From contig JBBABY010000003.1 of NCBI GenBank assembly GCA_041657425.1, positions 1 to 32,000 of the forward strand: DNA of 32,000 nt, in the 5' to 3' direction. Under the pieces are notes generated by a model that did not search any database, was not told the origin of the DNA, and saw only the letters and a list, made by a program, of their open reading frames with translations. This document shows, in pieces, positions 819-27,838 of the stretch. The position numbers were made by a program, and so were the translations under genes. Each line of letters opens with the position of its first letter. Position 1 is the stretch's first letter. Source of the DNA: an archaeon (lineage in GTDB: Archaea; Iainarchaeota; Iainarchaeia; Iainarchaeales; CSSED10-239).

Positions 819-977
819 ATGTGCATCAAAACAACATCCATAAAACACCCAAACACAGATTGTTGCAACAACCCAACATGCGACGTTTCATTAACCCCGC
901 CGTTTCTTGTGCCGGCACGATGTTGGTATTGTGGGAAGTTGTGTAGTGAGTGTGGAAAAATAAACAACAACCATTAA
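819..977 (+). CDS. small Cys-rich protein (52 aa)
   Basis: ORF below the track cutoff: MCIKTTSIKHPNTDCCNNPTCDVSLTPPFLVPARCWYCGKLCSECGKINNNH. It has 9 Cys including CWYCGKLCSEC and lies on the same strand as its neighbours. No clear SD. Confidence 0.35.
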   Translation: MCIKTTSIKHPNTDCCNNPTCDVSLTPPFLVPARCWYCGKLCSECGKINNNH

Positions 978-1000
978 ATACTAACGCGTTCTATACATAC
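971..1000 (+). promoter_or_regulatory. promoter-like box TTAAAT(974-979)-N12-TATACA(992-997), 5 nt before ATG 1003
   Basis: CCATTAAATACTAACGCGTTCTAT (971-994) matches 27809-27832 at 22 of 24 positions. No SD lies between the box and the ATG. Confidence 0.4.
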
Positions 1001-2579: not shown

Positions 2580-2771
2580 ATGACTAAATACAAAAAATGT
2601 GAATGTTTAAAAGAAGAGAATTCCGTTGCGCGATGTGATGCTGTTGATAGATTAATGCGCGGCGAATCTGTTTTTTATTGTCCGAAGTCAAGACTTCAAT
2701 ATCATGTCACGGCAACTTGTTGGAAGGTTGATTTTGATTGGGTTGGGTCGTTAAATGGAAGAAGAAATTAA
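2580..2771 (+). CDS. hypothetical small protein
   Basis: Track ORF of 63 aa with an ATG start, same strand. It overlaps the next gene by 17 nt. Confidence 0.5.
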   Translation: MTKYKKCECLKEENSVARCDAVDRLMRGESVFYCPKSRLQYHVTATCWKVDFDWVGSLNGRRN

Positions 2772-3636
2772 AACAAAGGTTTGTAGTCGGTGTAAGAGGG
2801 GATTGCCGTTAACGAAGTTTAGGAGAGAAAAAAGTAGAAAAGATGGATTGCAAATGTGGTGTAAAGATTGCCAAAGTGAATATGGGAGGGAAAGAAATAA
2901 AATATTACATCCAACGGAATCAAAAATCCGTGATGTTTTGCGTATTTGTAAACAATGTGGAATTGTATTCGAAGTAAAATATCCATATCAACACCCGCAA
3001 TATTGTTCTCGTGAGTGTGCATATATCGGAAATAGAAGTAAAATAAAATGTAAATGCTTGACATTCGGAAAAGAATTTGAAGTGTGGACATCTTATATTG
3101 TTAGGGGTGGTGGGAAATATTGCTCGGTTGGATGTAAATCGATTGCCAGAAGAAAACGTATAAATCGTGTTTGTCAGCAATGTGGGAAAGAATTTGAAAC
3201 CACACAATACAAAGTTGATCACGAAAGGGGGAAATTTTGTTCTGATGAATGCAGTCGCAAATTTCGAATCGGGAAAAAATGGTCAGAGGATAAATGTTTA
3301 AATTTAAGATATATAAGACGTGGTGAAAATGCATATCAATGGAAGGATGGTGTCACATCATTAAATAATCAAATTAGACATTGCACAAAAATGAGAAAAT
3401 GGATTCTTTCTATATTTGCCAGAGATAATTACCGAGATTGGTTCAGCGGATGCAAAGGAACACGCAAAAACCCTATTCAAGCACACCATATAATACCTTT
3501 CCATACAATAATAGAAAAATATAATATAACGACTTTGGAAGAAGCAGAATCATGCGAAGAATTATGGGATATAAATAATGGAATCACCATGTTGAAGAAT
3601 TCTCATAAAGCATATCATGATATGTGGGGGTGGTAA
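2755..3636 (+). CDS. free-standing HNH endonuclease with N-terminal repeated zinc-ribbon modules
   Basis: C-terminal HHIIPF ... NGITMLKNSHKAYH is an HNH motif. Upstream are three repeats of C-x2-C-G-x-x-F-E ... (K/Q)(Y/F)CS-x-(E/G)C, plus a CSRC...CKDC ribbon. Confidence 0.85.
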   Translation: MEEEIKTKVCSRCKRGLPLTKFRREKSRKDGLQMWCKDCQSEYGRERNKILHPTESKIRDVLRICKQCGIVFEVKYPYQHPQYCSRECAYIGNRSKIKCKCLTFGKEFEVWTSYIVRGGGKYCSVGCKSIARRKRINRVCQQCGKEFETTQYKVDHERGKFCSDECSRKFRIGKKWSEDKCLNLRYIRRGENAYQWKDGVTSLNNQIRHCTKMRKWILSIFARDNYRDWFSGCKGTRKNPIQAHHIIPFHTIIEKYNITTLEEAESCEELWDINNGITMLKNSHKAYHDMWGW

Positions 3637-10780: not shown

Positions 10781-11581
10781 TCAAACCCCCAACACCTGCA
10801 TAATCGTCTTACCCTTCAACAACTCATTCTTCTTTTGTATCGCTCTCCTCAACCAATATTTCTCCGACACATTACAATAATGACAAATAGAATTTTGGTC
10901 TTTCTGCAATCTATCAGAGATCTTTCCATGTCGCGCTGCCAACTCTAGATATGTATTCTCATACAACGACCCAACCTTCTCCGTCAACCCGCGCACCATA
11001 CAACAAAAGAACACGTTGCCATTGGGCAGGAGTTGATAAGCAGGTGATTCTAGGAAGTTGCAAAGTCTACGCCCTTTTTTTAATTCGGCCCGACCGCGCG
11101 CCATATCCTCGCACTTATTGGAAATAAACCCCCACCCCATGTTCATATATTCGAGATGCTTAACATTCATTTCAATAATGGAGCGTGCTTCAAAGTAATC
11201 TTGTGTTTGTGGGATTTTGGCATTACCATAAGCGTCGGGGAGGTGAAGGACAAATTTGTCGATGGGAATATCAATTAACCTACAAGCATTAGTTGGTGTC
11301 AATCCGGTTAGTGTGCTAAATATAGAAATGGGGTGTCCTTTGTGATGTGCCCACATAATCATATCTGTTGTCTGTGGATTAAGGAATGGTTCGCATAGAC
11401 CAGAAAAGAAAATGGGTAGATTTTGTGGAACCGTTTTCATAAAGTTTTTGAACTGGTCAAGTGTCATTAAAGGATTACCTTTGTAATTTTTAATAATCGT
11501 TTCCTGTGGACAATATTTTAGGCAGTTGATTGAGCAACCGATTTTGGTTGTGATCTCGAAGTAGGAGGGTGGTAGGATCAT
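10781..11581 (-). CDS. small radical SAM-like enzyme with twitch/partial-SPASM C-terminus
   Basis: N-terminal GCSINCLKYC cluster motif (spacing CX3CX3C, read directly from the DNA). FSGLCEPFLNP is a GGEP-type SAM motif. CNFLESPAYQLLPNGNVFFC fits CX13GX4C, followed by CHYC. Confidence 0.65.
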   Translation of the reverse strand: MILPPSYFEITTKIGCSINCLKYCPQETIIKNYKGNPLMTLDQFKNFMKTVPQNLPIFFSGLCEPFLNPQTTDMIMWAHHKGHPISIFSTLTGLTPTNACRLIDIPIDKFVLHLPDAYGNAKIPQTQDYFEARSIIEMNVKHLEYMNMGWGFISNKCEDMARGRAELKKGRRLCNFLESPAYQLLPNGNVFFCCMVRGLTEKVGSLYENTYLELAARHGKISDRLQKDQNSICHYCNVSEKYWLRRAIQKKNELLKGKTIMQVLGV

Positions 11582-11730
11582 TTTATCCCCTCATTATATA
11601 TCTGTATATTTTCATACGGTTCGCCATCGTCTTTGATATCCACGACTCTCCCCTGTGTTCTATCATATTTCACCCATTTTTTAGATGATGTGTTGTAAAC
11701 TTGGAAATATATATCGTAGTTCGTTTTCAT
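11578..11730 (-). CDS. hypothetical 50-aa protein
   Basis: MKTNYDIYFQVYNTSSKKWVKYDRTQGRVVDIKDDGEPYENIQIYNEGIK. ATGA overlaps with both flanking genes. Below the track cutoff. Confidence 0.5.
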   Translation of the reverse strand: MKTNYDIYFQVYNTSSKKWVKYDRTQGRVVDIKDDGEPYENIQIYNEGIK

Positions 11731-12596
11731 CTCTTCCTCACCAAATCAAACCCCGTTACTTCTTCAACGATACAAACTCCCAAATTCTTCAAATGATACG
11801 GCAGCAAATCCCACGCACCCCTTTTAATAAGAATTTTTACAATGCCCCACGATTGATTAATATTGCCCGTTGTTGCAGTCAACCCGCTTTCGTTCCAACG
11901 ATAGTGAGATAAAACTTCTGGGAATAATCTACCTTTATATTTTCGCAAACGCAAAGACAAATCTCCATCATCAGTGTGTTTTAAAGATTCATCAAACACA
12001 TACCCATATTCAGATTTTATTTTATCTAATGTTTCTTTTTTAAATAATATTCCTCCAATTCCCCCAATCTCGTTGTGTGTACCGGGCATCTCCATAATAA
12101 TTTGTTCCTTATTATCTTTATGCATTTTTTGGCAATGCACACACCAATCCAAATCTGAATTGATATAGTTTTCCATTGCCATAACCATTCTTTCCAAGTT
12201 TTGTGGTTCCCACCAATCATCAGCATCTAGGAAAGTAACATATTTACCAGAACATTCATTAAACCCCTTATTGCGCGCGGTCGCACAATTAGATTTTTTA
12301 TCTTCCCGTATAATACGGATTTTTGGATTTGGATCATCTACATTAATGCATTTCCATATTTCATCCAATGTATTATCTGTGCATGGTGCGAGAACAATAA
12401 AACATTCCCAGTTTGTGTAAGTTTGGTTGATAACGGATTGTAGGCATTCTCCGATGTATTTTCCAGAATTATAAGCAGGAATGACAATACTTACGAGTGG
12501 AAGATTGTCATTATATTTTTTGCAATTAAATTCTCGCAACAATTCAAAATATAGTGGTGTTGGTTTTACTATTGGGTTCCAAAATACGCGGTTCAT
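11727..12596 (-). CDS. family 2 (GT-A) glycosyltransferase
   Basis: VSIVIPAYNSGKYIGECLQSVINQTYTNWECFIV and FLDADD (DXD). ATG 12596 lies 1 nt after the upstream stop. Confidence 0.85.
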   Translation of the reverse strand: MNRVFWNPIVKPTPLYFELLREFNCKKYNDNLPLVSIVIPAYNSGKYIGECLQSVINQTYTNWECFIVLAPCTDNTLDEIWKCINVDDPNPKIRIIREDKKSNCATARNKGFNECSGKYVTFLDADDWWEPQNLERMVMAMENYINSDLDWCVHCQKMHKDNKEQIIMEMPGTHNEIGGIGGILFKKETLDKIKSEYGYVFDESLKHTDDGDLSLRLRKYKGRLFPEVLSHYRWNESGLTATTGNINQSWGIVKILIKRGAWDLLPYHLKNLGVCIVEEVTGFDLVRKR

Positions 12597-12597
12597 T

Positions 12598-12972
12598 TTA
12601 ATCCTCCAATTTATCCATGAATTTATTAATAAAATATCCAATCGCTCCACCACAACCAAATCCGGTTATCATTCCATAAGAAATGATTATCATTTGACAT
12701 CCCATTATATATGCCCACATATGATAAATAGGTTGCGTTTCACTTGCAAATTCTATAATTTTTAATATTCCTAATATTCCTCCCATAAGTGATATTATTA
12801 AAAATGGAGCGATTTTTATTACATTATTCCAATTATATAAAAAGGATATATATTTTTTTGAAAACAATAATATATATATCGAGATTCCAACGAATATTCC
12901 AAATAATATTCCCATAATATGTGGAAATATTAAACATTTAACCATGGGCCAAAATTCTATAAATTCTTCCAT
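12598..12972 (-). CDS. small polytopic membrane protein (about 4 TM)
   Basis: Track ORF of 124 aa, almost entirely hydrophobic, inside the GT operon. Confidence 0.65.
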   Translation of the reverse strand: MEEFIEFWPMVKCLIFPHIMGILFGIFVGISIYILLFSKKYISFLYNWNNVIKIAPFLIISLMGGILGILKIIEFASETQPIYHMWAYIMGCQMIIISYGMITGFGCGGAIGYFINKFMDKLED

Positions 12973-12973
12973 T

Positions 12974-13306
12974 TTATTTCCTCTCCTTCAACTCTCTTAA
13001 TATAGTCACGACTTCCTTCCAATCCTTATTCAAATCCGCTGAATTTTTCATAAATAAATATTGATAATCGGATCGTATTAAAACTCTCCCTGATATTACA
13101 ACTCCGATAAATCCTATTATTGGAATAATTATATAAATAAGAATGGCAGCATTGCCATATATCCCAAATTTTTCACAAGCCAACATAGCAAATGTTTCAA
13201 ACGTCACGATTGGAAAAACATATTGATATATGTTCCACGCGGTCTGAAACTCGGTTTGTCGATCTGCAATATATTTTAAAATTGACAATGGAATTTTTAT
13301 GGTCAT
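12974..13306 (-). CDS. small membrane protein (about 110 aa)
   Basis: ATG 13306 overlaps the radical SAM stop (TGATG). The track's 13321 start is a TTG. Two or three TM helices and a charged C-terminus. Confidence 0.6.
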   Translation of the reverse strand: MTIKIPLSILKYIADRQTEFQTAWNIYQYVFPIVTFETFAMLACEKFGIYGNAAILIYIIIPIIGFIGVVISGRVLIRSDYQYLFMKNSADLNKDWKEVVTILRELKERK

Positions 13307-15783
13307 CAAATCCCCATCCAATTTTTAATCCGTCGCATTCTTTTAAATCCCAATAACTTTACAGCGAGTCTCCCCAATTGAATATATCGTGTGCCCATTT
13401 CAAATCTTCCATTACATTCGGGGTTATTACAAATTACCCCCACGCTGAATTGCGCATGTGGTCGTTTAGTTGTTTTATAAGTTTGCATCTTCCCACAATG
13501 GGGGCATTTTACAAAGATTTCATCATTGGTTATTTTTGTTGGAACAGATACGGGAATTGCTGTGTATTTTAAAGTGAACACTTCATTTTTCAACGTGTCA
13601 AAATCTTCATCTGATAAATTTGTGAGATTACATACGTTATCATAATTATAATCCGTGCTTGTCAATTTATTAATAAATTCTATTTCATCTTTTATGATTC
13701 CATTTTGTAAAGCATGTTTATAAATAGCGGTCCCGGGAAACGGAATAATAAAGCCCATAAATAAACCACCTCGTGAAAGATGTGGGTGTTCTCGAATGAA
13801 TTGTAAAGTAGTGCGTGCGGTGGAAAGTGTTTCTGCATTATCTCCAAAGATGAACCCCCCTTGCGGAACAAGATTTCTTTCTGCGATCATTCCAAGCGTG
13901 GTTTCAATCTGCGCGGGTGTTATGTGTTTTCGCATTGAATCGAGAACTTTTTGGTTGTAACTTTCGAGACCTAATCCGATAACTACATTCCCACAGGATT
14001 TCATGGCATCAAGAAGTTCTGCGTCCGCGCAATCAACGCGCAGATTGCAATACATTTCAATTCGCCACGGAATGGTTTTCTGATATTCTTTAAATTGTCG
14101 GCAGAATTCAAGTGCGCGCGCTTTATCGTATGAAAACAATTCGTCAAGAAATGTGAAGAAGTTAATGTGGTATTTTTCAACAACGTATTTGATTTCTGAC
14201 ATTATATTTTCTGCGGAACGGTAGCGGTATTTTGGGCCGGTTGTGTGGTAGCAAAATGTGCAATTATGAACAAGAACGTCGTTGGCATAGAACCAATTAT
14301 ATCCCGGCACTTCTAAACAATACGTATTATGTAACCCATCTAGTGGTTCAACGCTTTTAACTACGTGATTTACATCTGGTTGCCCGGGTATACGGGATTT
14401 TGTTGTTCTTCCACAACCACCTTTCCACATCGGATTTTTATTCCCCGTTTTGGATGCTTTATAATTCATTCTGGATTCTATAGAGCGAACTTTACCACGT
14501 TGTTCTTTTCCGCGTTGCACAAAAAATTCGTGTGGTAGATTTTTTGCGGGATTATTATCTTTCATACGTTGTGATAGTTCTGGATGGTAAGTTGGGATAT
14601 GTTTATGATTGTCGGTAAGTGTTAAATTTTTTTCAACATTATTTATTTGATTATGATCATTGTGATGAACCCTTTCGTATTGTGAGAGTTTCCTTCCAAT
14701 CATAGATTCCATTATTAAAGTGTGCTGATATCGATGCTTTTTCCTTCCCCATATTATAATCGTGTAACCAGTGGTGCTCAATTTATAATGAACAGCACGA
14801 ACACTATCACCGGGTCTCAAAAATTGTGCTTCCGTTTCATACTCTCTCAACGGGACATATTGGTTTGAGTTTAAAAATTTTACAAATTTGTGATCTGGTG
14901 TACAGTCAATATATCCCCCCTCTTTAAATGAAACTCTAACGAGATTTTTATTTTCTCCGGTTTTAGCAACTATTGAGGACTGTGCATATAATACATCTTT
15001 TGTAATTGGATCTCGTGTAAGAACTTTTGGGGTCTGCCCAACGAGATCTTTTATTTTAATGTTGCCATTTGTGGTTGCAATTAAAGTGTCTCCTGATAAA
15101 CAATTTGCCGAACAACCGCGCGCTGAAACCAACATATACGGGCGCGGTGGATAATCTCGTGGATATTGATTCCAACCGCCAAGTTCTTGGTGTTTCAAGT
15201 ATTCGGAATAACCGAATAGTTCAAGATCGGGAAACGGGAGTGCATCTAGGTTTTTGATTTGGGGGCGTGGTTGTGTTTTAGTAAACGTTGGAATAGGCCA
15301 TGTTGTTGAATAAATAATACCTTTAACATTTTCCACAGATTGCCCCTTCTCAATAGTTTGTATCAACTCTAATGCTGTTTCTTCACCCTCAAAAATAATC
15401 CCGTAATGTGGATTAATAAGTTTCATCATTAGTTCGGGGTTAGACGAAATGATACCTCCACCACAGACGGTTATTGTATTGGGAGATGCTTCGTGTACAT
15501 ATTTTATTATATCGCGCACAGCGGGATACATTATGGAAATTGTGCCGGTGAATACGAAATCATAGTGAGTGTCAGTAATAGTTTTTTGTACAATGTTTTT
15601 AACCAATCCGGGTGTGTGATTAAGGTTTAATGCCGAGACATCACATCCATTGTGTTTGAGATAAGAAGCGATGTAGGGCATTCCCACGGGCATTAAGTAA
15701 TCATAGTCAATACCGGTTTCGTTTTCATTGTAGACAGTTCCGAAACCTTTATTAAATCTAGGTAAGATAAAAAGGATTTTCAT
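13306..15783 (-). CDS. class B (B12-binding domain) radical SAM enzyme, interrupted by an intein
   Basis: N-terminal B12-binding-type Rossmann region (KILFILP ... ITVCGGGIISSNPE). After intein removal the cluster motif is CSANCTFC. Also FLDELF, GLESYNQKVLDSMRK, and a C-terminal Zn ribbon CPHCG...CNNPEC. ATG 15783 forms an ATGA overlap upstream. Confidence 0.9.
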   Translation of the reverse strand: MKILFILPRFNKGFGTVYNENETGIDYDYLMPVGMPYIASYLKHNGCDVSALNLNHTPGLVKNIVQKTITDTHYDFVFTGTISIMYPAVRDIIKYVHEASPNTITVCGGGIISSNPELMMKLINPHYGIIFEGEETALELIQTIEKGQSVENVKGIIYSTTWPIPTFTKTQPRPQIKNLDALPFPDLELFGYSEYLKHQELGGWNQYPRDYPPRPYMLVSARGCSANCLSGDTLIATTNGNIKIKDLVGQTPKVLTRDPITKDVLYAQSSIVAKTGENKNLVRVSFKEGGYIDCTPDHKFVKFLNSNQYVPLREYETEAQFLRPGDSVRAVHYKLSTTGYTIIIWGRKKHRYQHTLIMESMIGRKLSQYERVHHNDHNQINNVEKNLTLTDNHKHIPTYHPELSQRMKDNNPAKNLPHEFFVQRGKEQRGKVRSIESRMNYKASKTGNKNPMWKGGCGRTTKSRIPGQPDVNHVVKSVEPLDGLHNTYCLEVPGYNWFYANDVLVHNCTFCYHTTGPKYRYRSAENIMSEIKYVVEKYHINFFTFLDELFSYDKARALEFCRQFKEYQKTIPWRIEMYCNLRVDCADAELLDAMKSCGNVVIGLGLESYNQKVLDSMRKHITPAQIETTLGMIAERNLVPQGGFIFGDNAETLSTARTTLQFIREHPHLSRGGLFMGFIIPFPGTAIYKHALQNGIIKDEIEFINKLTSTDYNYDNVCNLTNLSDEDFDTLKNEVFTLKYTAIPVSVPTKITNDEIFVKCPHCGKMQTYKTTKRPHAQFSVGVICNNPECNGRFEMGTRYIQLGRLAVKLLGFKRMRRIKNWMGI
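14263..15102 (-). mobile_element. intein (280 aa) with HNH homing-endonuclease domain
   Basis: Starts CLSGDTLI (Cys1). Block B is IDCTPDH. HNH motif HHNDHNQINNVEKNL...NHKH. Ends FYANDVLVHN and is followed by a +1 Cys. Excision restores CX3CX2C in frame. Confidence 0.85.
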
Positions 15784-15968
15784 ATTCCAAACCACCATCC
15801 CGGTCTATCACATGCAAATGTGGAATAGAGTGGATCAGAAAGTGTTGCATTTACACATTTTTGAAATTCACCCACTTGTGTTAAATGAATAACTGTGCCA
15901 TGTATAAATATTGCCAATATTATTACTATAACACTTAAAAATATTGTTAATTTATAACCATCTTTCAT
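15780..15968 (-). CDS. small single-TM protein
   Basis: Track ORF of 62 aa with LTIFLSVIVIILAIFI. ATGA overlaps on both sides. Confidence 0.55.
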   Translation of the reverse strand: MKDGYKLTIFLSVIVIILAIFIHGTVIHLTQVGEFQKCVNATLSDPLYSTFACDRPGWWFGI

Positions 15969-16609
15969 TCTTTCTCCTCCTTACATTCAATCAACTTAAT
16001 ATCCGGTTTTTCTTTTTCAATTTGTTGCAATGATTGTTGAGCATATAACATTGAATTTTTGTTGGCACAAATATCATCCAATCGTGGGGGAATATCAACA
16101 CCATACTTTCTGAAATCCAGAGAATAAAACTTTTCATATGCCCCACGTGCTTCTTCAAACGTTCCAGCCATTACGAGAGCGCGGATTGATGATTCACATA
16201 CATCACGCAACATTTTTGCCGGCACTTCGAGGTCAATATTTGCTTTGATGTATTCTACAATTTCATATTCAAATTGTGATGTAATCGGAATTCCATAAAA
16301 GTTCGCACCTTCGCATCGTCCATATTCATTTGATTTTCCACCGAGTTCAACCACTTGTTCTACTCTCAATTTTTCACTATTTAAAATATCTTCTATCTCG
16401 TGCATTCTTTGTTTAATTTCTTTTTGTTTCCGTTCCAGTTGTTCTTTTTCGAGTATGAGAGTATCCCATCCTTTTCGTTTAAGCACATTACTACGAGCAA
16501 TTCCCCAGAAATCTTTTATCTGACTGATAAAGCGTTGATTGATTGCTTTCAAATCCTGCGTTAGTATTTTTTCAAATCCTTCGCGCTCCCGTTCGGTTAG
16601 TTTTGGCAT
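15965..16609 (-). CDS. hypothetical protein with coiled-coil segment
   Basis: Track ORF of 214 aa with LEKEQLERKQKEIKQRMHEIEDIL. It is embedded in the GT operon and overlaps the upstream GT by 13 nt. Confidence 0.65.
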   Translation of the reverse strand: MPKLTEREREGFEKILTQDLKAINQRFISQIKDFWGIARSNVLKRKGWDTLILEKEQLERKQKEIKQRMHEIEDILNSEKLRVEQVVELGGKSNEYGRCEGANFYGIPITSQFEYEIVEYIKANIDLEVPAKMLRDVCESSIRALVMAGTFEEARGAYEKFYSLDFRKYGVDIPPRLDDICANKNSMLYAQQSLQQIEKEKPDIKLIECKEEKE

Positions 16610-17769
16610 TTCAACAACCTCCTGTAAACTTCCATATACTGTTTCGCAATATTCTCCGGTAAATATTTCAATGCTGTTTCCCTCCCTCCTTTTCCAAGTT
16701 GCTCTTTTAATGCATCACCACAAATTAAAATCTTAAATGCTAGTTCTTCGTGGTTTCCGTTTTTTACCAACAATCCATCAACACCATCTTTTATTATACT
16801 TTCCGAACCGCCCGACCGGGTTGCTATTACTGGTGTTCCTGTAGCCATCGCTTCAAGAATGGTTATACCCTCTGATTCTTCATATGAAGGTGAAATATAT
16901 ATTGATGCATTAGAATATTCTTTCATTAATAATGTATCGCTTACTTTTCCAACAAAATTCACATTGTCAATTAAATCCAAATCGGAAATGAGTTTCATTA
17001 TATCTGCGCAATATATAGGACTTCGTATCGAACCAACGACATTCAATTTTATATAAGGCATTTGTTTTTTAACTATATAAAGTGATCGGATAAGAACGTC
17101 TAATCCTTTTCGTTTTTCAATCCCCCCAACATATAATAATAGATTTGGTATTGTGTATTTTGTTGTAACATCCATAAAACATGGATCAACCGGGTTGGAA
17201 ATGACATCTACATGTATCGCATAGTTTCCATATTGTGTTTTCGATATGCATTTTCTCATTTCTCTTTCTACATAATAAGAAACGGCAACAACGTTTTCCA
17301 TTTTTTCAAAGATGTGTGATTCCATTTTACAACAACTTATACGATGCCACGCGCCTTTTAGACCAGACCAATATTTTGATTCATTGTGTGACACTCCGTG
17401 AACAGTTATAAGAACAGGACATTTTTTATATGCAATTGCTGGGTATCCATATTCCCAGCTTGAACCATTGGCGTGGATTAAATCTGGTTTTATTTTATTT
17501 ATTTCATGCAATATCAATTGCTTGGAAAGGAATTTTGGAACCAAGATTGGTTTGTTTCTTAAAGGAAAATGGATATAATGGATTGCAAGATTTTTGTTGA
17601 TTGACACAAAAGATTTATCAATTCCATCCGTGATTGTCAATACGTGAAAGTCATATTCTGGGCACAATTTTGATAATGCATTGGCAGTTAAATAAACTGA
17701 CCGCATTATTCCGCCGGTTATTGTTTCATTGGGTAGTGGGTAGTCTCCGAGTATAAGAATACGTGTCAT
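16597..17769 (-). CDS. GT-B glycosyltransferase, GT4-like
   Basis: ESEGITILEAMATGTPVIATRSGGSESIIKDGVDGLLV is the EX7E retaining GT-B signature. The N-terminus RILILGDYPLP is typical. Confidence 0.85.
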   Translation of the reverse strand: MTRILILGDYPLPNETITGGIMRSVYLTANALSKLCPEYDFHVLTITDGIDKSFVSINKNLAIHYIHFPLRNKPILVPKFLSKQLILHEINKIKPDLIHANGSSWEYGYPAIAYKKCPVLITVHGVSHNESKYWSGLKGAWHRISCCKMESHIFEKMENVVAVSYYVEREMRKCISKTQYGNYAIHVDVISNPVDPCFMDVTTKYTIPNLLLYVGGIEKRKGLDVLIRSLYIVKKQMPYIKLNVVGSIRSPIYCADIMKLISDLDLIDNVNFVGKVSDTLLMKEYSNASIYISPSYEESEGITILEAMATGTPVIATRSGGSESIIKDGVDGLLVKNGNHEELAFKILICGDALKEQLGKGGRETALKYLPENIAKQYMEVYRRLLKCQN

Positions 17770-18758
17770 ATTAATTCCTTGATGAGTTGTTTCACCGATT
17801 CTTGTTTTCTTTCACGGCTGAAATAACGTGCGCGCTCACGCGCTTTTGAACCGTCCATAGTCATTGCTTTATTAATTGCATTAATAGTTGCTGTAACATC
17901 TCCATAAGGCACGATAATACCCGTGTCTTCTACAATCCACGGCAAAGCACCTTTATCGCTAACAACAGGCACACAACCATATGCCATTGCCTCTACAAGT
18001 GAGATACCAAATGTTTCATCGCGTGAAAGTTGGCAATAGACTTTGGCGCGTTTCAAATAGTCCTCGTATTCTTTTCGTGGGAGATGTTCTAATATTTTTG
18101 TGTTATAAAGAATATTTTTTGATGCTTCTTGAAATATTGAAATTCCTTTATAAGCATACGCATGTTTCGAACACACGGCGGTTACAGCAAGATCTTCTTT
18201 TTGTGGAAGTGGTATATCACAAGTTTCCGTATCAACCCAATTCGGAATTGTGATTATATGAGCCATTGTGTGGGTTAAGTAATAATTTTCAAAATAATAA
18301 TCGTCTTCGGGCAATGCAAATGTATTATCCATCAATTTTATTCCTATACCAACTTTTAATGTTTTAACATTGTATACGGGGGAAGGAACAATAATTTCTG
18401 TTGCATTTCTTATAATCCATCTTGAAACATATCCACGGATTGGTTTAAGTTGATTTCCATAATTAATTTCAGATATTCCAGAAACTTCAAATCCACCGAC
18501 ATTCACAGCTGTGGGTATATTAAATATTTTTGCAATAATAACTAATGGTAGTGCCGGGCAATCTGCAAACCAAACCCAGACGAGATTTGATTTTCTAATA
18601 TTTAAAACTTGTTGAAAACATTTAAATAGATAAAGCGGAAAATCCATTTTTTTGATCGGGGTGTTAAAAATAAAAACATCGTGATCTTCCTTTAAAAGTT
18701 CTGCATCTCCTTGTATAAAAGGACTGCGCATATCTCCGGCGAAAAAGATTTTTGTCAT
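17766..18758 (-). CDS. GT-B glycosyltransferase, GT1/GT4-like
   Basis: ETFGISLVEAMAYGCVPVVSDKGALPWIVED (EX7E). 330 aa, with an ATGA overlap downstream. Confidence 0.75.
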   Translation of the reverse strand: MTKIFFAGDMRSPFIQGDAELLKEDHDVFIFNTPIKKMDFPLYLFKCFQQVLNIRKSNLVWVWFADCPALPLVIIAKIFNIPTAVNVGGFEVSGISEINYGNQLKPIRGYVSRWIIRNATEIIVPSPVYNVKTLKVGIGIKLMDNTFALPEDDYYFENYYLTHTMAHIITIPNWVDTETCDIPLPQKEDLAVTAVCSKHAYAYKGISIFQEASKNILYNTKILEHLPRKEYEDYLKRAKVYCQLSRDETFGISLVEAMAYGCVPVVSDKGALPWIVEDTGIIVPYGDVTATINAINKAMTMDGSKARERARYFSRERKQESVKQLIKELI

Positions 18759-19547
18759 TTAATATCCTCTAATAAAATCTTTAACTATATTCCACATTAC
18801 CATTATTTTTTCATCGAGAATTCTATAATGAATTAAAAACGATGTTTCTGGTTTTTCCAGATTGTTCCTTTTTAAAAATTCTCGTAAATTTTCCATTACT
18901 TTTATAACGTTTTGGTGATAAGCAACAAAGGAATAGTTACTTCGTTTTTGTATACTATTTTCTGAAATAGTATATTCAAACAAAGGTGTCGGGTCGTAAT
19001 AAATTTGTGTTGTTGCTACAAATCTTATTGAGAAATCATAGTCTTCACAAAGTGGGAGCAGGTTGTATAGACCTGTTTTTTCCAATAAACTTCTGCGAAT
19101 TACACATGACGATGTTACAACGAAATCCCCTATTATTTCCTGTGGAAGCATGTCGGGTTCATTTGTAATATTTCTTTTAATATATAAATCTTTTCCTATG
19201 TTCCCGTTACTGCAAACCAATCCTAATTTTGGGTCTATTAATAATCTTGATATCTGCGATGCTAATTTTTCTGGATACCAAACATCATCATCATCTAAAA
19301 AGGCAATGTATTTTCCATTTGAAACTTTAATGCCCATGTTTCTGGATATGGCTGGATATGATGTTGTAGGTATATGAAGAAAATGGACATTTGGATAATT
19401 ATCGGAAATTTCGTTGGTTGCCCATGTGTCATCTACAACAATAATTTCATAATCTGTAAAAGTCTGATCTAGGACACTTTGGATTGCTCGTTTTAAAGAT
19501 AGGTTGCGGTTGTGAGTTGGAATGATAACAGAAACGAGAGGAGGCAT
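18759..19547 (-). CDS. family 2 (GT-A) glycosyltransferase
   Basis: VSVIIPTHNRNLSLKRAIQSVLDQTFTDYEIIVVDD and FLDDDD (DXD). First gene after the promoter-like box. Confidence 0.85.
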   Translation of the reverse strand: MPPLVSVIIPTHNRNLSLKRAIQSVLDQTFTDYEIIVVDDTWATNEISDNYPNVHFLHIPTTSYPAISRNMGIKVSNGKYIAFLDDDDVWYPEKLASQISRLLIDPKLGLVCSNGNIGKDLYIKRNITNEPDMLPQEIIGDFVVTSSCVIRRSLLEKTGLYNLLPLCEDYDFSIRFVATTQIYYDPTPLFEYTISENSIQKRSNYSFVAYHQNVIKVMENLREFLKRNNLEKPETSFLIHYRILDEKIMVMWNIVKDFIRGY

Positions 19548-19555
19548 ATTGTAAT

Positions 19556-19579
19556 AAGATAGGACGCGTTAATATAAAA
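19556..19579 (-). promoter_or_regulatory. promoter-like box TTTTAT-N12(ATTAACGCGTCC)-TATCTT, 8 nt before ATG 19547
   Basis: Same architecture and CGCGT(T/C)CTAT core as the boxes at 971 and 27809. No SD before the GT2 start. Confidence 0.35.
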
Positions 19580-19592
19580 AGGTTGTGGTGGG

Positions 19593-21149
19593 TTATTTGC
19601 CTTCACGAATACGTTTTCTTCCAAGTTCACAATATTCAGGATTGAGTTCTATACCAATATAATCACGATTATGGAGTTTACAAGCGACACCGGTTGCTGA
19701 TGAGCCGGAGAAGGGATCGAGAATTGCGGCGGGAACTGGTATGTTATTTGTGCAATTACAAGATGGTTGCCAATCTATGGTTTCAGTAATTTGAGCAACA
19801 TGACCACCAGTGCGTTCTAATCCCTGCGCATTACCGGGATTGAGTTTTTGCTTCTGATCATCAGAACCAATGGTGGGGCGAGTTATATATGATTCTTTTT
19901 TCGCAACTCTAACCCACGGCGCTCCACAATGTGGGCAAACGCCTTTTTCTGATGTTCCCGCGAGAATTAGGGGTTCTACAAGCCTTATCGGATATGCGGC
20001 AAAATGTGAACCTTTATACGGTTTCGGATTTACCACAAGAGCCATTGGTTCACCATCTTCATTGTGAAGAAGTCCTTGCCATGTCTTGAAGAAGAAATCG
20101 GAATCCCGCATGTAACGAAGGCCATAACCATTAGGTTCATAGCGAGCGTTAAATCCTGTGTAAGTTTCATTCCCTGTGTTATCTTGCTTTTTAAATTGCC
20201 CCCCATCTGGATACTTGGAGTTTGTGTTTACGCATTGACGAATAACACCGCGCGGTCTTTTATCTTTGTTGTAAGATTCTGATGAAAGTTGCATTGTTGC
20301 TATGTAGTCATAGTAATATTTCTGTGATTTTGAGAATAAGAATATGTGTTCAATGGAAGAGCCGGGGCGATCTGTTACAGATGATGGAAGTGAATTTCTT
20401 TTTACCCAAGGAATATCAGAACGGAGATACCAACCCCCCTTACTTGCTTTTAACCACTCTTCATCCAAATCTTCAATTGTTCTTTTAGTATGTTTTGGAA
20501 CGTCATTCCAAGTATCATAATCTCGAAGCAACGAAGTTTTGATTTTTTCTACTGTATACATTGTCTGTGGTGATGAGGCACCATCGGAGCGCATAGAAAA
20601 TGCTAAAGCCCACGGGATACCAATAAGGTCTTTGGGTTTCATTCCCATAAGTTTTGACTTATCTACATTCCCGGATTTAGAGTGACCTTCAAGATTTCTT
20701 CCTTTAAGAATATCTGATCCACCGTTGAACGATCCGCATTTAGAAGCACAATAACTATCCCCAATATTCATCCAGAAAACACCGTCGCTTCTTAAAATCC
20801 TTTTTAATTCATGAAAGATAGTTGTTAGGTGTTTAACAAACAATTCAGGTGTAGGCTCTTGTCCCAGTTCACCTTTCCACGCTCCACACTTTGAACAAAT
20901 ATCACTTCGCAAATTCTCACGGTGCGTATTCCCTTCATGTTGCATTGGACCCGGTTTTGTATCAGATGATCTATATCCCGGTGGATGAACTTCCCCCCAT
21001 TCATGTTGGCAGTTTGGATCTCCATCCCATATTTGTGGTTCGGTATTGTACGAACGCAATCCATAATATGGACTTGACGTTACCGCACAATGCACTGACT
21101 CACTATCCATCCTTTTCAAAACTGTTAAAGCGTCGCCTTGGATAATCAT
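19593..21149 (-). CDS. beta-class N4/N6 DNA methyltransferase with large central insertion
   Basis: N-terminal motif IV VTSSPYY. GELGQEPTPELFVKHL...VFWMNIGDSY. C-terminal motif I ILDPFSGSSATG. Zn-type CQHEW...CSKCG. No adjacent restriction endonuclease was recognised. Confidence 0.85.
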   Translation of the reverse strand: MIIQGDALTVLKRMDSESVHCAVTSSPYYGLRSYNTEPQIWDGDPNCQHEWGEVHPPGYRSSDTKPGPMQHEGNTHRENLRSDICSKCGAWKGELGQEPTPELFVKHLTTIFHELKRILRSDGVFWMNIGDSYCASKCGSFNGGSDILKGRNLEGHSKSGNVDKSKLMGMKPKDLIGIPWALAFSMRSDGASSPQTMYTVEKIKTSLLRDYDTWNDVPKHTKRTIEDLDEEWLKASKGGWYLRSDIPWVKRNSLPSSVTDRPGSSIEHIFLFSKSQKYYYDYIATMQLSSESYNKDKRPRGVIRQCVNTNSKYPDGGQFKKQDNTGNETYTGFNARYEPNGYGLRYMRDSDFFFKTWQGLLHNEDGEPMALVVNPKPYKGSHFAAYPIRLVEPLILAGTSEKGVCPHCGAPWVRVAKKESYITRPTIGSDDQKQKLNPGNAQGLERTGGHVAQITETIDWQPSCNCTNNIPVPAAILDPFSGSSATGVACKLHNRDYIGIELNPEYCELGRKRIREGK

Positions 21150-23064: not shown

Positions 23065-23241
23065 TTACTCTTTATTCGTAAACCTCTTCAAACACTCGCT
23101 CATATTCCATTGCCCACAAACAAGATTATCATCCGTCTCGCTGTTATCAAGATCACAAGTCATATTTGTATGACACGAACTTTCTTTTGTTTTCTTATGT
23201 TCGCAAGTCGCACAACACGTAAATGCTATAAACTTAATCAT
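23065..23241 (-). CDS. small Cys-rich protein (58 aa)
   Basis: MIKFIAFTCCATCEHKKTKESSCHTNMTCDLDNSETDDNLVCGQWNMSECLKRFTNKE. ATGA overlap with the Lar-like stop. Below the track cutoff. Confidence 0.45.
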   Translation of the reverse strand: MIKFIAFTCCATCEHKKTKESSCHTNMTCDLDNSETDDNLVCGQWNMSECLKRFTNKE

Positions 23242-23612
23242 TTTTTCTCCTTTTTTGAAACCATTTGAATTGGCGTTAAAAGATCGTTTATATGTTTAAT
23301 TATATTTTCAGAATTCATAAGTTCTCTTCTAATAATAAATAATGCATCTGTAGATAATTGAACACGGTTATCATCAACTTCATCAGGTATCATTGCTGGA
23401 ATAAATCTATTGTTCCACGCTTCGATTGCTTGTTGTTCGGATTCGCACCAACAATGAGGATAGAGATTTCTCCCCCTCGCATAGCAATCTTTACAAAAAA
23501 CATGATATGCATAAATTCGGTTGTTATCATCTTCTGCCAGATCTGGCACTATTTCTAGATCGTTACTTCCACAAAATGGACATGGTAATAGTTTTTCATT
23601 TTTGTCAATCAT
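23238..23612 (-). CDS. Lar-family (restriction alleviation-like) zinc-ribbon protein
   Basis: LPCPFCGSNDLEIV ... YHVFCKDCYARG ... SEQQAIEAWNNR matches the Lar-family pattern. ATG 23612 is preferred over the track's upstream start. Confidence 0.65.
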   Translation of the reverse strand: MIDKNEKLLPCPFCGSNDLEIVPDLAEDDNNRIYAYHVFCKDCYARGRNLYPHCWCESEQQAIEAWNNRFIPAMIPDEVDDNRVQLSTDALFIIRRELMNSENIIKHINDLLTPIQMVSKKEKK

Positions 23613-23922
23613 TTCCAACCACCGTATCAACCAAGTGCAAAATCGACAACCATTCCGGCACATCAATATTTACACTACCCGCATATCCCTTTTCAATCGC
23701 TTCTTCTATTTCTTTTCTAAAAAGATTTCTTCTACTCTGTGGCATATGATCCCAGTTTGCTTTTATGATATCAGCGATAGTGCTGACAACATAAGTTTGA
23801 CGACCGAGAGCGTATCGAAACGCACAAAATAAGAGAATGTCTTGGTTACAATCTTCGAAGTTGATGTAGATTTCTCCGGTTCTATGGCACGGTAGTGGGG
23901 GTGTTAGTTTTTGATTAACCAT
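23605..23922 (-). CDS. conserved-looking hypothetical protein (FRYALGRQTY motif)
   Basis: Track ORF. ATG 23922 overlaps the nrdJ stop (TGATG); GTG 23931 is the alternative start. Confidence 0.6.
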   Translation of the reverse strand: MVNQKLTPPLPCHRTGEIYINFEDCNQDILLFCAFRYALGRQTYVVSTIADIIKANWDHMPQSRRNLFRKEIEEAIEKGYAGSVNIDVPEWLSILHLVDTVVGND

Positions 23923-25315
23923 CACGAACACCTACTTTTGCCACAATTCGTACAAATCCTGCATCCGCCTTCCATCACATAATGCGGCGCGTCACAACAT
24001 TTTTCTTCTGTTGCTTCAACCTTTATACTTTTGGGCATTAACATTTTTATCGCATCGTCCAAACATTTTCCTGTAATATCCGCGCACGATTTACCACACG
24101 ATAATTTGTTCTGCATCGCCGTCATGCACTTTACTTTAGAGAATTGTTTTACATAGTTCTCTGCTGGTGTCCCCCATTCCAATCCTGCCGAAATAGAACG
24201 CCCCATTGCTGCCATATTTGCCTGACACCCACCAACACCATCACCTTCCACAAAGATCATTGTTGGTTCCTCTTTGTCGTGGCCAATGATAACATAGAAT
24301 TTCCCGCATCCACTATGGACTTTGTAAATTACAGCGGGGGTTTTGGATTCGTAGAAAGCATTTTCAGTTTCGATCCAATCTACGATACTTTCAACAACCA
24401 CGGGTTTCTTAAGTGCCAACACTTCATTCTCACGGCTACCATTGCGATAGATTGTAAGACCTTTACAACCACTCTTCCACGCGTCAATAATGATCTGTTT
24501 GATTTCTTCTTTAGTAGCAGAGTTTGGAAGGTTGATTGTTTTTGAAATGGACATATCCACATTCTTTTGGAATGTGGCCTGCATTTTTACGTGCATTGAT
24601 GAAGGGATGTCCATTGCGTTTTGGTAGAGGAGTTTGAAAGAATCTGGTAAAAATTCTATATCGCGAATCGTCCCCTTTTCATGGCAGTGTCTAATAATGG
24701 CTTGTCTCGTTCCATCCAACGTATCATATTTTACGCCATCCACGGTTACGAAGAATCCTACTTTGCCATTAAGATCAGTCATTAGATTTTTCAACGCTTC
24801 TTCAAACAACGGATGCACAATATAATGTTCGCCCAACGTGTCATGCCGCGTATATACCCAATTAAATGCGGGTTCGATACCTGATGAAGCACCCGCAATA
24901 ATACTAATTGTTCCCGTTGGTGCAATCGAAGTCAATGAAGCATTTAACCTGTTCTGTTTGATATTCGGATTCTTACCCAATGACTCTGACACTTCATGTG
25001 CGCGCTCATTAATAAATTTCATAATTTCTTCGGCAATATCAAGTGCCTTCTGACTATTATAAGGAATCCCCATTTTAATCAACGCGTCGTGGAATCCCAT
25101 AACACCGAGACCGATCTTGCGCGTTCGCTTGGATGCAAAGTCAATTTCTTGGAGTGGGTATTTGTTTTTGTCGATTACATTATTGAGGAATATAACCGCT
25201 GTGTCTATTGTGGCTTTGAGTTTGTCGTAGTCAATTGCATTGTCTTTTATGTGGTGGGAAAGGTTGATGCTACCCAAGTTGCAGCTCCCCCATGATTCTA
25301 ATAGAGCCTCCCCGC
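23922..25315 (-). CDS. nrdJ: class II (adenosylcobalamin-dependent) ribonucleotide reductase, exon 2
   Basis: Begins within the Cys codon of NPCGE, then ALLESWGSCNLGSINL. C-terminal Zn ribbon CDAPHYVMEGGCRICTNCG. Joins exon 1 in frame (694 + 1394 nt = 696 codons). Confidence 0.9.
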
Positions 25316-25586
25316 CAAGAGGTTTTTTGTTACAGCAACGATGCTTCGTTGCAGGTGTGATCATTTCTGTCACACTCTCATATTCTCATATGAGATCGGA
25401 CTATATCATCGATGTCGCGTCTATAGTCTCTGAACCTTCATCTTATTGATAAGATGCTTGGCTGCTGATTGCCCAATCATTTCTATTTTTAAAACGTTCA
25501 CGTTTATCATTTCTGATTGCGTTGTAGTTAGAGATGCTTAAGGGTGTTCCAGCAATTTACGCGATTTTAAATCCACACGGAGTTTA
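25316..25586 (-). ncRNA. group I self-splicing intron (271 nt, no ORF)
   Basis: P1 is exon AAUCCAU paired with intron GUGGAUU, with a U.G wobble at the 5' splice site. Core elements: P AAUUGCUGG, Q AAUCAGCAGC, R GGUUCAGAGACUAUAG, S GAUGAUAUAGUCCG (P7 GACUAUA/UAUAGUC). Terminal G at 25316. Confidence 0.85.
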
Positions 25587-26280
25587 ATGGATTTGTATTG
25601 AGTTCTCCATATTCGGGAGCCGGGTTATACTTTTCGATTGTATCTTTGAACAGAATTCCCGGCTCTCCGTTATTGTAAATTCCGTTCACAATCAAGTTCA
25701 TGATTTCGGGTGTGGGATTCTTCATGAATTCATCTGTGAGTTTGACAGAGATATTAAAGTTAGAGAGTTTTCCTTCTGTCTGTTTACATGTCACAAAGTT
25801 TTTGATTTCTGGATGCGCAATATCAAGGCATCCCATCATAGCTCCCCGGCGACGGCCTCCTTGCTTGACAACCTCTGTCATTGTGTTAAAAACTTCCATA
25901 AATGAAACCACACCGGAGGAAACACCGTTGCGTTTTCCAACTTTGCTTCCAGCGGGTCGGAGTTTTGAGAAATTGAATCCGACCCCGCCCCCACGAGCGA
26001 AGATTTTTGCTGCATTTTTGTTAGCATCAAAAATACTTTCAATTGTATCTTCTACCGGCAAAAAGAAACACGCTGACAAGGCGGGGTTAGAAGTTCCGGC
26101 ATTCATCAGGGTTGGTGAGTTGGGCAAAAAATCTTTATCTACAAGAATTTTCTTGAACTGATGATATTGTTCGTCGTTGCTTGAAATGAATCGCGCTACA
26201 CGTTCACAAACATCGGGATAACTATTTTCTCCATCGACGCAATATCGTTCTTTAATGAGTTTATCTTCGTAAGTTTCCAT
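25587..26280 (-). CDS. nrdJ: class II ribonucleotide reductase, exon 1
   Basis: FLPNSPTLMNAG, ACFF, GGGVGFNFSKLRPAGS, GGRRRGAMM, ending ...ELNTNP plus the first base of the Cys codon. GGGAG SD. Confidence 0.9.
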
Positions 26281-27794: not shown

Positions 27795-27808
27795 ATCCTT
27801 CTACACAA

Positions 27809-27838
27809 CCATTAAATACAATCGCGTTCTATCTAATT
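27809..27838 (+). promoter_or_regulatory. promoter-like box TTAAAT(27812-27817)-N12-TATCTA(27830-27835), 11 nt before ATG 27847
   Basis: CCATTAAATACAATCGCGTTCTAT matches 971-994 at 22 of 24 positions. It is the head of the plus block. No SD. Confidence 0.4.

Follow-up and report, generated by a model that had tools for sequence, protein, structure and literature searches.

A putative virus-borne cassette of glycosyltransferases and two radical SAM enzymes with an intein inside an iron-sulfur motif

Gene content and organization of the cassette

In this work, we describe a gene cassette that encodes four glycosyltransferases (GTs) and two radical S-adenosylmethionine (SAM) enzymes on a 32,000-nt stretch of DNA (positions 1 to 32,000 of contig JBBABY010000003.1, assembly GCA_041657425.1). 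This whole stretch is hereafter called the window. A preliminary description of the window, prepared without database searches, had listed eleven open reading frames (ORFs) on the minus strand between 10781 and 19547, and all of these were found. The junctions between genes range from a 13-nt overlap to a 1-nt gap, with 4-nt ATGA overlaps at five of them. The earlier suggestion that all eleven genes are expressed as a set goes too far, in that the conserved set comprises only seven of the eleven. According to tblastn searches over related contigs, this core consists of the genes for GT2a, a GT-B enzyme, GT4, a class B (B12-domain) radical SAM enzyme, a membrane protein of 110 amino acids (aa), GT2b, and a twitch radical SAM enzyme. 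The ORFs of 214, 62, 124, and 50 aa are accessory. From the first gene to the last, the cassette reads as follows:

18759..19547, minus strand: GT2a, family-2 GT with a GT-A fold, 262 aa, core (PF00535, 1.4e-28; DXD motif in FLDDDD)
17766..18758, minus strand: GT-B glycosyltransferase, 330 aa, core (PF00534, Glycos_transf_1, 1.8e-17; EX7E motif ETFGISLVE)
16597..17769, minus strand: GT4 (GT-B), 390 aa, core (PF00534, 1.9e-33; PF13439, the Glyco_transf_4 N-domain, 2e-13; EX7E motif ESEGITILE)
15965..16609, minus strand: 214-aa protein, accessory (no family match)
15780..15968, minus strand: 62-aa protein with one predicted transmembrane helix, accessory (hydropathy)
13306..15783, minus strand: class B radical SAM precursor, 825 aa, core (PF02310, 6.5e-13; PF04055, 5.8e-14; PF14890, 1.2e-11)
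12974..13306, minus strand: 110-aa membrane protein, core (hydropathy; hydrophobic core at about residues 26-79, charged C-terminal tail)
12598..12972, minus strand: 124-aa protein with 2-3 predicted transmembrane segments, accessory (hydropathy)
11727..12596, minus strand: GT2b, family-2 GT with a GT-A fold, 289 aa, core (PF00535, 1.8e-31; DXD motif in FLDADD)
11578..11730, minus strand: 50-aa ORF, accessory (homologues only in L004/L005 and L187, elsewhere in the locus)
10781..11581, minus strand: BtrN-like twitch radical SAM enzyme, 266 aa, core (family profile and fold; cluster cysteines C16, C20, and C24)

The enzyme calls made earlier, namely, two GT2 enzymes, two GT-B enzymes, a class B radical SAM enzyme, and a twitch radical SAM enzyme, are all upheld by profiles, motifs, and folds. 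Among the related contigs, which are given here by their locus labels, GT2a is 78-79% identical in L002-L004 and 54% in L006. The 330-aa GT-B is 57-68% identical in relatives and 38% in L010, GT4 is 52-82% identical among relatives, and GT2b is 55-80% identical in relatives and 31% in L012. For GT4, NCBIfam gives EpsE, VpsD, and Agl16 as the closest named families, each under its cut-off. Both GT2 enzymes weakly match "GtrB-like" families of PHROGs and, in NCBIfam, AglG. Neither of them has a transmembrane segment as judged by hydropathy.

For the 62-, 110-, and 124-aa products, hydropathy gives transmembrane segments, in agreement with the three small membrane proteins proposed before. The 110-aa protein belongs to a 115-aa ORF, the start of which is most likely the ATG at 13306, such that the product has the same 110 aa as its relatives. 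It is 61-77% identical in L002-L006, and small membrane proteins also occupy the same slot in other, more distant modules (113 aa in L012 and 84 aa in L010/L172). The 62- and 124-aa ORFs are unique to this genome, with no homologue in any related locus that was fetched. The 214- and 50-aa products have no match in Pfam, NCBIfam, PHROGs, or PADLOC. Of the related contigs, L001-L003 and L182-L184 carry the 214-aa gene, and L004 and L006 lack it. Its product is 96% identical to the copies in L001 and L182-L184, whereas the flanking GT4 and radical SAM proteins are only 70-86% identical. With this pattern of identity, the 214-aa gene looks like a recently exchanged, mobile accessory gene.

The radical SAM enzymes and the intein

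The class B enzyme is encoded as a precursor of 825 aa, or of 830 aa if an alternative ATG at 15798 is used, and has 545 aa after the predicted removal of an intein. It contains a B12-binding Rossmann domain (PF02310, 49 bits; cut-off 32.1) followed by a radical SAM core with a CX3CX2C motif (PF04055, 53 bits; cut-off 29.5). The model of an intein-free homologue that is 87% identical (P0002; predicted local distance difference test score, pLDDT, 90.9) has its best fold matches in TsrM, AprD4, MgmA, OxsB, CysS, and TokK, and the top matches have E-values of 1e-24 to 1e-16. By sequence, its closest PDB entry is AprD4, an enzyme that has an aminoglycoside sugar as substrate. The class assignment is therefore secure, and methylation, dehydration, and rearrangement are all possible chemistries. 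The preliminary description had compared this enzyme with C-methylases of the GenK/Fom3 type. That analogy holds at the level of the class but not below it. HpnJ, PhpK, and BchE are the named families that it matches best, with scores far under the cut-offs (127 bits against 578 for HpnJ, the highest), the enzyme falls in none of these subfamilies nor in the GenK/Fom3 type, and the closest folds include AprD4, TsrM, and MgmA.

The order of domains, with an N-terminal B12 Rossmann domain and then a radical SAM barrel with CX3CX2C, is shared with the class B enzymes TsrM, AprD4, MgmA, OxsB, TokK, and HpnJ. Unlike these enzymes, all named families of which score far below cut-off, the protein ends in an invariant four-cysteine ribbon (CPHC…C…C) and two predicted helices (13306-13500, minus strand). 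This ending is conserved throughout the family alignment and may represent a zinc ribbon or an additional metal site with a membrane-associating tail.

The 825-aa ORF had been read as an uninterrupted enzyme, and this reading has to be revised. We found an intein of 280 aa (PF14890, 1.2e-11) in the middle of the ORF:

14263..15102, minus strand: 280-aa intein inside the class B radical SAM ORF (residues 233-512 of the 830-aa version)

The intein starts with CLSGDT (block A, with Cys at position 1), has TPDH as block B, and ends with VLVHN followed by Cys at position +1. Both of its ends are recognized by NCBIfam profiles, with intein_Nterm (TIGR01445) at 7.7e-11 and 42.8 bits (cut-off 24.5) and intein_Cterm (TIGR01443) at 8.7e-4 and 19.5 bits (cut-off 15.6). 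These features are those of a class 1 intein: a Cys at position 1 with a TxxH block B, a terminal His-Asn followed by Cys at +1, and a precise in-frame insertion at a conserved site. All canonical splicing residues are present, from which we infer that the intein splices. An HNH-like stretch (HHNDHNQINNVEKNL…H, also written HHNDHNQINNVEKNLTLTDNHKH) lies within it. Pfam detects no HNH domain in this copy, and one relative of the intein (P0181) carries PF13392 (HNH_3). By sequence, the intein has no relative in the PDB.

The insertion lies between the Asn and the second Cys of the CX3CX2C motif (CSAN/C…HN/CTFC, where slashes mark the junctions), and excision restores CSANCTFC. The first cluster cysteine is thereby separated from the other two by the intein, and the residue that serves as the +1 splice nucleophile doubles as the second cluster ligand. 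Given this position, the precursor would be unable to bind a cluster or cleave SAM before the intein is removed. In twelve intein-free homologues (36-87% identical, including P0002, P0003, P0005, P0007, P0010, and P0012), the C-x3-C-x-F-C motif is uninterrupted. About 12 close homologues (72-87% identical) lack the intein; homologues in this range of identity (P0002-P0012) are 542-558 aa long, and RGCxxxCxFCFHTTG is unbroken in them where examined. The contigs L182-L184 are likewise intein-free. A second intein is present at the identical site in P0013 (L006), and this intein is visibly more diverged than its extein (~75% identical). The search for further relatives of the intein gave radical SAM genes only, namely, P0180, P0182, and P0184 on short metagenome contigs, at the same site and in different exteins. 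This distribution suggests homing of the intein between paralogous active-site motifs.

An intein in a radical SAM enzyme is known from MoaA of Pyrococcus abyssi, in which a disulfide between Cys-3 and Cys1 acts as a redox trap (PMC3922620). In both cases, a radical SAM enzyme is interrupted beside extein cysteines, and redox-coupled splicing would be possible in principle here. The present carrier differs in being a putatively viral class B enzyme rather than an archaeal MoaA, and the extein cysteines at -4, +1, and +4 are the cluster ligands. Our literature search found no description of an intein in a class B radical SAM enzyme or in a viral radical SAM enzyme. The intein thus offers a natural test case, in which an iron-sulfur motif is split, a cluster ligand serves as the +1 nucleophile, and many intein-free alleles and same-site relatives are available for comparison. 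Possible coupling of splicing to redox state or to cluster assembly can be tested on it, as can the homing of inteins between active-site motifs of paralogues.

The second radical SAM enzyme, with 266 aa, matches the Radical_SAM and SPASM profiles of Pfam below their cut-offs. The profile of its own family matches BtrN over the full length (E=7e-5), and C174, C193, C233, and C236 align with the auxiliary-cluster cysteines of BtrN. In an alignment of 18 sequences, C16, C20, C24, C174, C193, C194, C233, and C236 are invariant. These include the cysteines for one putative auxiliary cluster, as in an abridged C-terminal SPASM (twitch) domain, and the CX2CX5CX3C of the second cluster of full SPASM domains was not seen in this alignment. 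The AlphaFold model (pLDDT 89.7) has BtrN (4m7t) as its best PDB match in Foldseek (E=5.9e-9; template modelling scores 0.65/0.69), followed by anSME, BlsE, SpeY, and DesII. Most of these structural neighbours (BtrN, BlsE, SpeY, and DesII) act on sugars or cyclitols. Both sequence profile and fold thus bear out the earlier comparison with BtrN-type twitch enzymes, and the profile and fold searches leave both radical SAM assignments in place.

BtrN (PDB 4M7T) is a 2-deoxy-scyllo-inosamine dehydrogenase, and the likeness to it includes the size (266 vs ~250 aa), a three-cysteine motif near residue 16, and the aligned auxiliary cysteines. The two proteins differ in that they are only ~14% identical, in an extra conserved cysteine (C193/C194), and in the cluster motif, which in the clade of the present enzyme is CX3CX3C instead of CX3CX2C. 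The CX3CX3C form (CSINCLKYC, residues 16-24) is found in 43 of 53 full-length homologues, and the canonical CX3CX2C in ten distant ones. By analogy with the nearest structures (BtrN, SpeY, and DesII), the enzyme may act as an alcohol dehydrogenase, with a sugar or cyclitol as substrate.

IMG/VR also lists about 385 viral proteins that are more distantly related members of the twitch family and lie outside the context of the cassette. None of the 79 loci of such relatives has a B12-domain radical SAM gene or GT genes beside it, and this larger family therefore has a different context from the cassette. One member, on a 157-kb cyanophage-like contig (L099, 8216-10843), forms the C-terminal part of an 875-aa fusion with an FkbM methyltransferase domain and an N-domain; the fusion adjoins Gly-rich, collagen-like proteins.

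Distribution, viral origin, and possible role

The seven-gene core was found in every related contig long enough to show it, and synteny is kept in L001-L006 and L182-L184. By gene content, analogous modules are present in two further, more divergent viral lineages. The module of L012 contains genes for a B12-domain radical SAM enzyme, a 113-aa membrane protein, a GT2, and a twitch radical SAM enzyme (46% identity). The module of L010/L172 contains genes for a GT2, a GT1, an 84-aa membrane protein, SAM methyltransferases, a 255-aa Cys-rich radical SAM enzyme, and a B12-domain radical SAM enzyme. The cassette is conserved across several uncultured viral lineages and is therefore not a one-off. 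Furthermore, a homologous protein of 553-603 aa, with a signal peptide and a C-terminal CarboxypepD_reg domain, is encoded no more than 2.5 kb from the module in four contigs:

L006, 10274-12085: 553-603-aa secreted protein, by homology
L010, 13991-15730: same family
L012, 8522-10183: same family
L172, 12547-14352: same family

We consider this recurrent neighbour, for which PHROGs and the PDB gave no match, a candidate for an acceptor or partner of the module.

Among deposited phage genomes (50,697), megablast with 10 kb of the window gave no match, and tblastn with the B12-domain radical SAM enzyme gave three weak matches of 19-24% identity, the best being 24% in Streptomyces phage SF3. PHROGs has no family for either radical SAM enzyme or for the small proteins; the twitch enzyme had no match, and the class B enzyme had a weak match to its C-terminal ribbon only. 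PADLOC returned no defense-system match, only a generic radical SAM hit (PDC-M51A, 8.9e-7) and the flanking DNA methylase. A metagenome scan yielded seven short contigs only. No description of the cassette was found in the literature, in which B12-domain radical SAM genes and GT2/GT4 genes appear separately as auxiliary genes in viruses of methanogens (PMC9723712). The searches of phage genomes, PHROGs, and the literature thus agree with the earlier statement that no known phage system pairs GTs with both types of radical SAM enzyme.

Among 185,579 species-representative genomes, we found 484 relatives of the B12-domain radical SAM enzyme, all with no more than 40% identity. Cellular relatives come from Methanoregula, DPANN archaea, Elusimicrobia, Planctomycetes, Omnitrophota, and deltaproteobacteria. 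In Methanoregula, the gene for a homologue with 46% identity is surrounded by genes of the heptose or nucleotide-sugar type, an ABC-2 exporter gene, and a gene for a SPASM radical SAM enzyme. A 37% identical homologue adjoins a gene for an STT3-family oligosaccharyltransferase (AglB in archaea), a flippase, DegT, and GTs. A distant relative of the twitch enzyme lies in a wall-polysaccharide locus of Lachnospiraceae with more radical SAM and GT genes. In the 79 cellular loci with B12-domain relatives, the twitch partner, the 110-aa protein, and the accessory ORFs are absent within 10 kb (0 of 79 for the twitch partner), and the closest cellular relatives are at most 48% identical. The possibility raised earlier that the block is a characterized cellular locus for capsular polysaccharide (CPS) or O-antigen is thus not borne out.

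Cellular loci in which relatives of the B12-domain enzyme stand beside an STT3-family gene, a flippase, and GT2/GT4 genes bring the archaeal Agl N-glycosylation clusters to mind. The weak matches of GT4 to Agl16 and of the GT2 enzymes to AglG point in the same direction. Unlike the Agl clusters, the cassette has no oligosaccharyltransferase, flippase, or priming enzyme. The cellular homologues also bear on a different product, namely, a diffusible pseudo-oligosaccharide resembling an aminoglycoside, which would be directed against competitors or used for manipulating the host. All nearest solved relatives (BtrN, AprD4, SpeY, BlsE, and DesII) are sugar or cyclitol enzymes of antibiotic pathways, as this explanation would have it. 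However, these similarities are at the level of fold or class only (14-18% identity), the cassette contains no cyclitol synthase, aminotransferase, or exporter, and the cellular homologues examined sit in envelope-glycan loci rather than antibiotic clusters. We consider a diffusible product very unlikely.

The viral origin of the window is well supported by its gene content, in which structural genes were not seen. The window and ~20 kb of flanking sequence encode a helicase, HNH and NUMOD3 endonucleases, VRR-NUC and YqaJ-like nucleases, a Sak4-like AAA_24 protein, a DUF669 protein, an N6/N4 DNA methylase, Lar-like domains, PolB, and a split ribonucleotide reductase (RNR). No housekeeping genes were found over ~50 kb, no tRNA genes are present, and no integrase was seen. 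It is conceivable that the cassette is an ordinary chromosomal polysaccharide locus of a small-genome bacterium, given that three NCBI records of metagenome-assembled genomes, with contigs up to 138,951 bp, label identical proteins as "Candidatus Paceibacterota bacterium." This explanation is highly improbable in view of the ~50 kb that hold only virus-type replication, recombination, and homing-endonuclease genes together with an intron-split RNR, of a relative that is listed in IMG/VR, and of the species-representative genomes (0 of 185,579), none of which has a relative of the B12-domain enzyme above 40% identity. The sequence context strongly suggests a viral nature.

Glycosylation encoded by viruses is known, and we found no described case with radical SAM sugar-tailoring enzymes in the literature. 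In mycobacteriophage virion glycosylation and chlorovirus capsid glycosylation, the virus carries several GTs of its own and depends on the nucleotide sugars of its host. The cassette resembles these systems in its several virus-borne GTs and, in the model proposed below, in its use of host nucleotide sugars. To our knowledge, radical SAM enzymes, a conserved membrane protein, and an intein are absent from both of them. The radical SAM pair and the intein that splits the iron-sulfur motif are what the cassette adds to virus-encoded glycosylation. A second comparison is with the gtrABC serotype-conversion systems, in which a phage GT2 acting on a lipid-linked sugar alters the host surface; the weak matches of both GT2 enzymes to GtrB-like families fit this picture. 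Unlike gtrABC, to which it does not belong, the cassette has no GtrA (PF04138 was not found), no GtrC-like polytopic protein, and no membrane anchor on its GT2 enzymes, and it has four GTs and two radical SAM enzymes.

As the preliminary description had stated, nucleotide-sugar synthesis genes and partners of the Wzx/Wzy or GtrC type are missing: none of these, nor GtrA, was detected in the window by searches of Pfam, NCBIfam, and PHROGs. In the window and ~10 kb on each side, there is also no priming phosphoglycosyltransferase, flippase, polymerase, oligosaccharyltransferase, ABC exporter, or nucleotide-sugar gene, and the locus is not a Wzx/Wzy- or ABC-dependent CPS or O-antigen locus over this range.

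We regard it as moderately probable that the genes form a cassette of a virus, associated with the membrane, whose products build a glycan and tailor it through radical chemistry. In favour of this reading are the domain and fold assignments, the syntenic core, the analogous modules in two other lineages, the structural neighbours that act on sugars or cyclitols, the cellular relatives in glycan loci, and the lack of a match to known defense systems. Host nucleotide sugars would be used, because none are encoded nearby. In the proposed mechanism, the four Leloir GTs would build a short oligosaccharide from these sugars at the inner face of the membrane, most likely on polyprenyl or dolichyl phosphate primed by the host. 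Like BtrN, SpeY, and DesII, the twitch enzyme would abstract hydrogen from a sugar carbinol and oxidize it to a keto-sugar. The class B enzyme, which here would first have to splice out its intein, would C-methylate a sugar carbon or, like AprD4 and HpnJ, dehydrate or rearrange it. Anchoring of the enzymes may fall to the conserved small membrane protein. Host flippase and transferase machinery would then place the altered glycan on surface glycoconjugates, which would change the surface of the infected cell, decorate a secreted viral protein, or both. Such a cassette would be a compact seven-gene route to a sugar that is probably C-modified or deoxygenated, of interest for class B and twitch enzymology, and a candidate new kind of surface or virion modification from anoxic habitats.

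Several observations weigh against this model. The lipid-carrier route relies wholly on host functions for priming, flipping, polymerization, and transfer, because the genes for these are not in the cassette. The non-canonical CX3CX3C of the putative twitch enzyme departs from the usual cluster motif. Whether the class B enzyme uses cobalamin cannot be read from the sequence, and AprD4 has the same domain. The candidate acceptor of 553-603 aa was not found in the window or in the ~20 kb of readable flanks, and its enrichment in N-X-S/T sequons is inconsistent (z from 0.3 to 2.9).

The lack of priming, flippase, and transferase genes would sit more easily with direct glycosylation of capsid, tail, or fiber proteins in the cytoplasm, on the pattern of mycobacteriophages or chloroviruses, in which the four GTs act without a lipid carrier and the two radical SAM enzymes tailor the attached sugars. 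The GT2 enzymes without transmembrane segments would also suit this arrangement, as would the position of the L012 module, which abuts a gene for a fiber-like 1519-aa PKD/Laminin_G protein, and that of the twitch fusion beside collagen-like proteins in the cyanophage-like contig L099. However, a small membrane protein is conserved in the module across three lineages, the recurrent neighbour protein has a signal peptide and would be exported rather than assembled in the cytoplasm, and the cassette lies here among replication genes, not structural genes. For these reasons, virion-protein glycosylation appears unlikely, although it is the most credible of the alternatives to the membrane-associated cassette.

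The genes next to the cassette raise one more explanation, in which the viral DNA is hypermodified with a radical-tailored sugar chain against host restriction. An N6/N4 DNA methylase gene lies directly upstream here and in L002/L003, unrelated DNA methylase genes lie within 4 kb in L010 and L012, Lar-like restriction-alleviation domains are encoded nearby, and there are weak hits to TAGT (0.0076) and GT4-conflict (1.2e-5). Both hits are under the Pfam cut-offs, however, and L004 has the cassette without the methylase. Genes for hydroxymethylase, TET/JBP, or deazapurine functions were not seen in ~50 kb, the conserved membrane protein fits poorly, and the cellular relatives sit in surface-glycan loci. 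We know of no precedent for four GTs acting on a DNA modification. The chance that the cassette modifies DNA is therefore very small.

A more specific form of the membrane-associated model takes the intein into account. A virus of an archaeon or of an ultra-small bacterium would rewrite the lipid-linked surface glycan of its host with a radical SAM-modified sugar, the intein would gate the key enzyme, and splicing may depend on redox conditions or iron-sulfur supply. We offer this version as quite improbable in its entirety. If true, it would mean that a conditional switch is built into a viral auxiliary pathway, and that the same intein family has spread to the same motif of several radical SAM families.

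Leader motif, host, and neighbouring genes

Despite different upstream genes, the short leader before the first gene of the cassette is 84-91% identical between the window, L002, and L004, and thus more conserved than the coding DNA next to it (77%):

19548..19592, minus strand: conserved 45-nt leader that holds the motif AACCTTTTTATATTAACGCG at 19565-19584, with no Shine-Dalgarno sequence before the first ATG
969-988 (plus strand), 19565-19584 (minus strand), and 27807-27826 (plus strand): motif copies, each followed by TYCTAT

The core motif AACCNTTWWATANWAWCGCG has three exact copies in the window versus 0.12 expected, and what had been noted as a promoter-like box is thus a conserved, repeated element. 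All three copies stand 14-20 nt ahead of the first ATG in a block of co-directional genes that has no Shine-Dalgarno sequence, and this arrangement recurs in relatives. Most internal genes carry GGAGG-type sites. The TTWWATA element is ~25-30 nt before the first ATGs that lack a Shine-Dalgarno sequence. As far as sequence can tell, the motif has the geometry expected of an archaeal TATA box that drives a leaderless transcript, or of a bacterial promoter with a -10 element only. A first, looser search for the leader motif was unconvincing (6 versus 2.3), and the refined motif gave the clear excess. A generic sigma-70 scan of the window found no excess (73 versus 67.5 +/- 7.7), and a terminator scan did no better than on shuffled sequence.

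The window had been called a phage-type genome. Its gene content is indeed viral, but the word "phage" may name the wrong host domain, since the best relatives of PolB belong to archaeal tailed viruses. This polymerase of 1123 aa is encoded ~0.8-4.1 kb beyond the 3' end of the window (L175, 12480-15851). Searched against 50,697 virus genomes, it finds haloarchaeal tailed viruses in all of its 15 best matches (31-33% identity, in two pieces), and Pfam detects no intein in it. The helicase, the Sak4-like protein, and RNR match best to bacteriophages. In general, group I introns are a typical feature of bacteriophages and are seldom found in archaea. Such an intron (RF00028, 67 bits, E=3e-15; 25377-25596, minus strand) splits the gene for the RNR large subunit into exons at 25567-26280 and 23922-25373, and for the reason just given it points to a bacteriophage. 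In L002 and L004, the RNR gene is single and uninterrupted (682-698 aa).

The N6/N4 DNA methylase gene upstream of the leader (19593-21149, minus strand) encodes 518 aa, versus 400 aa in L002/L003 (36% identity), and its Pfam match falls in two separated stretches, such that it may carry an insertion. L004 has no DNA methylase gene at this position. Two proteins with Lar-like zinc-ribbon domains are encoded at 2755-3636 (plus strand) and 23238-23666 (minus strand), one of which is fused to an HNH endonuclease. Taken with the intron, the intein, and NUMOD3 endonucleases encoded a short way beyond the window, these two proteins point to a genome rich in selfish elements.

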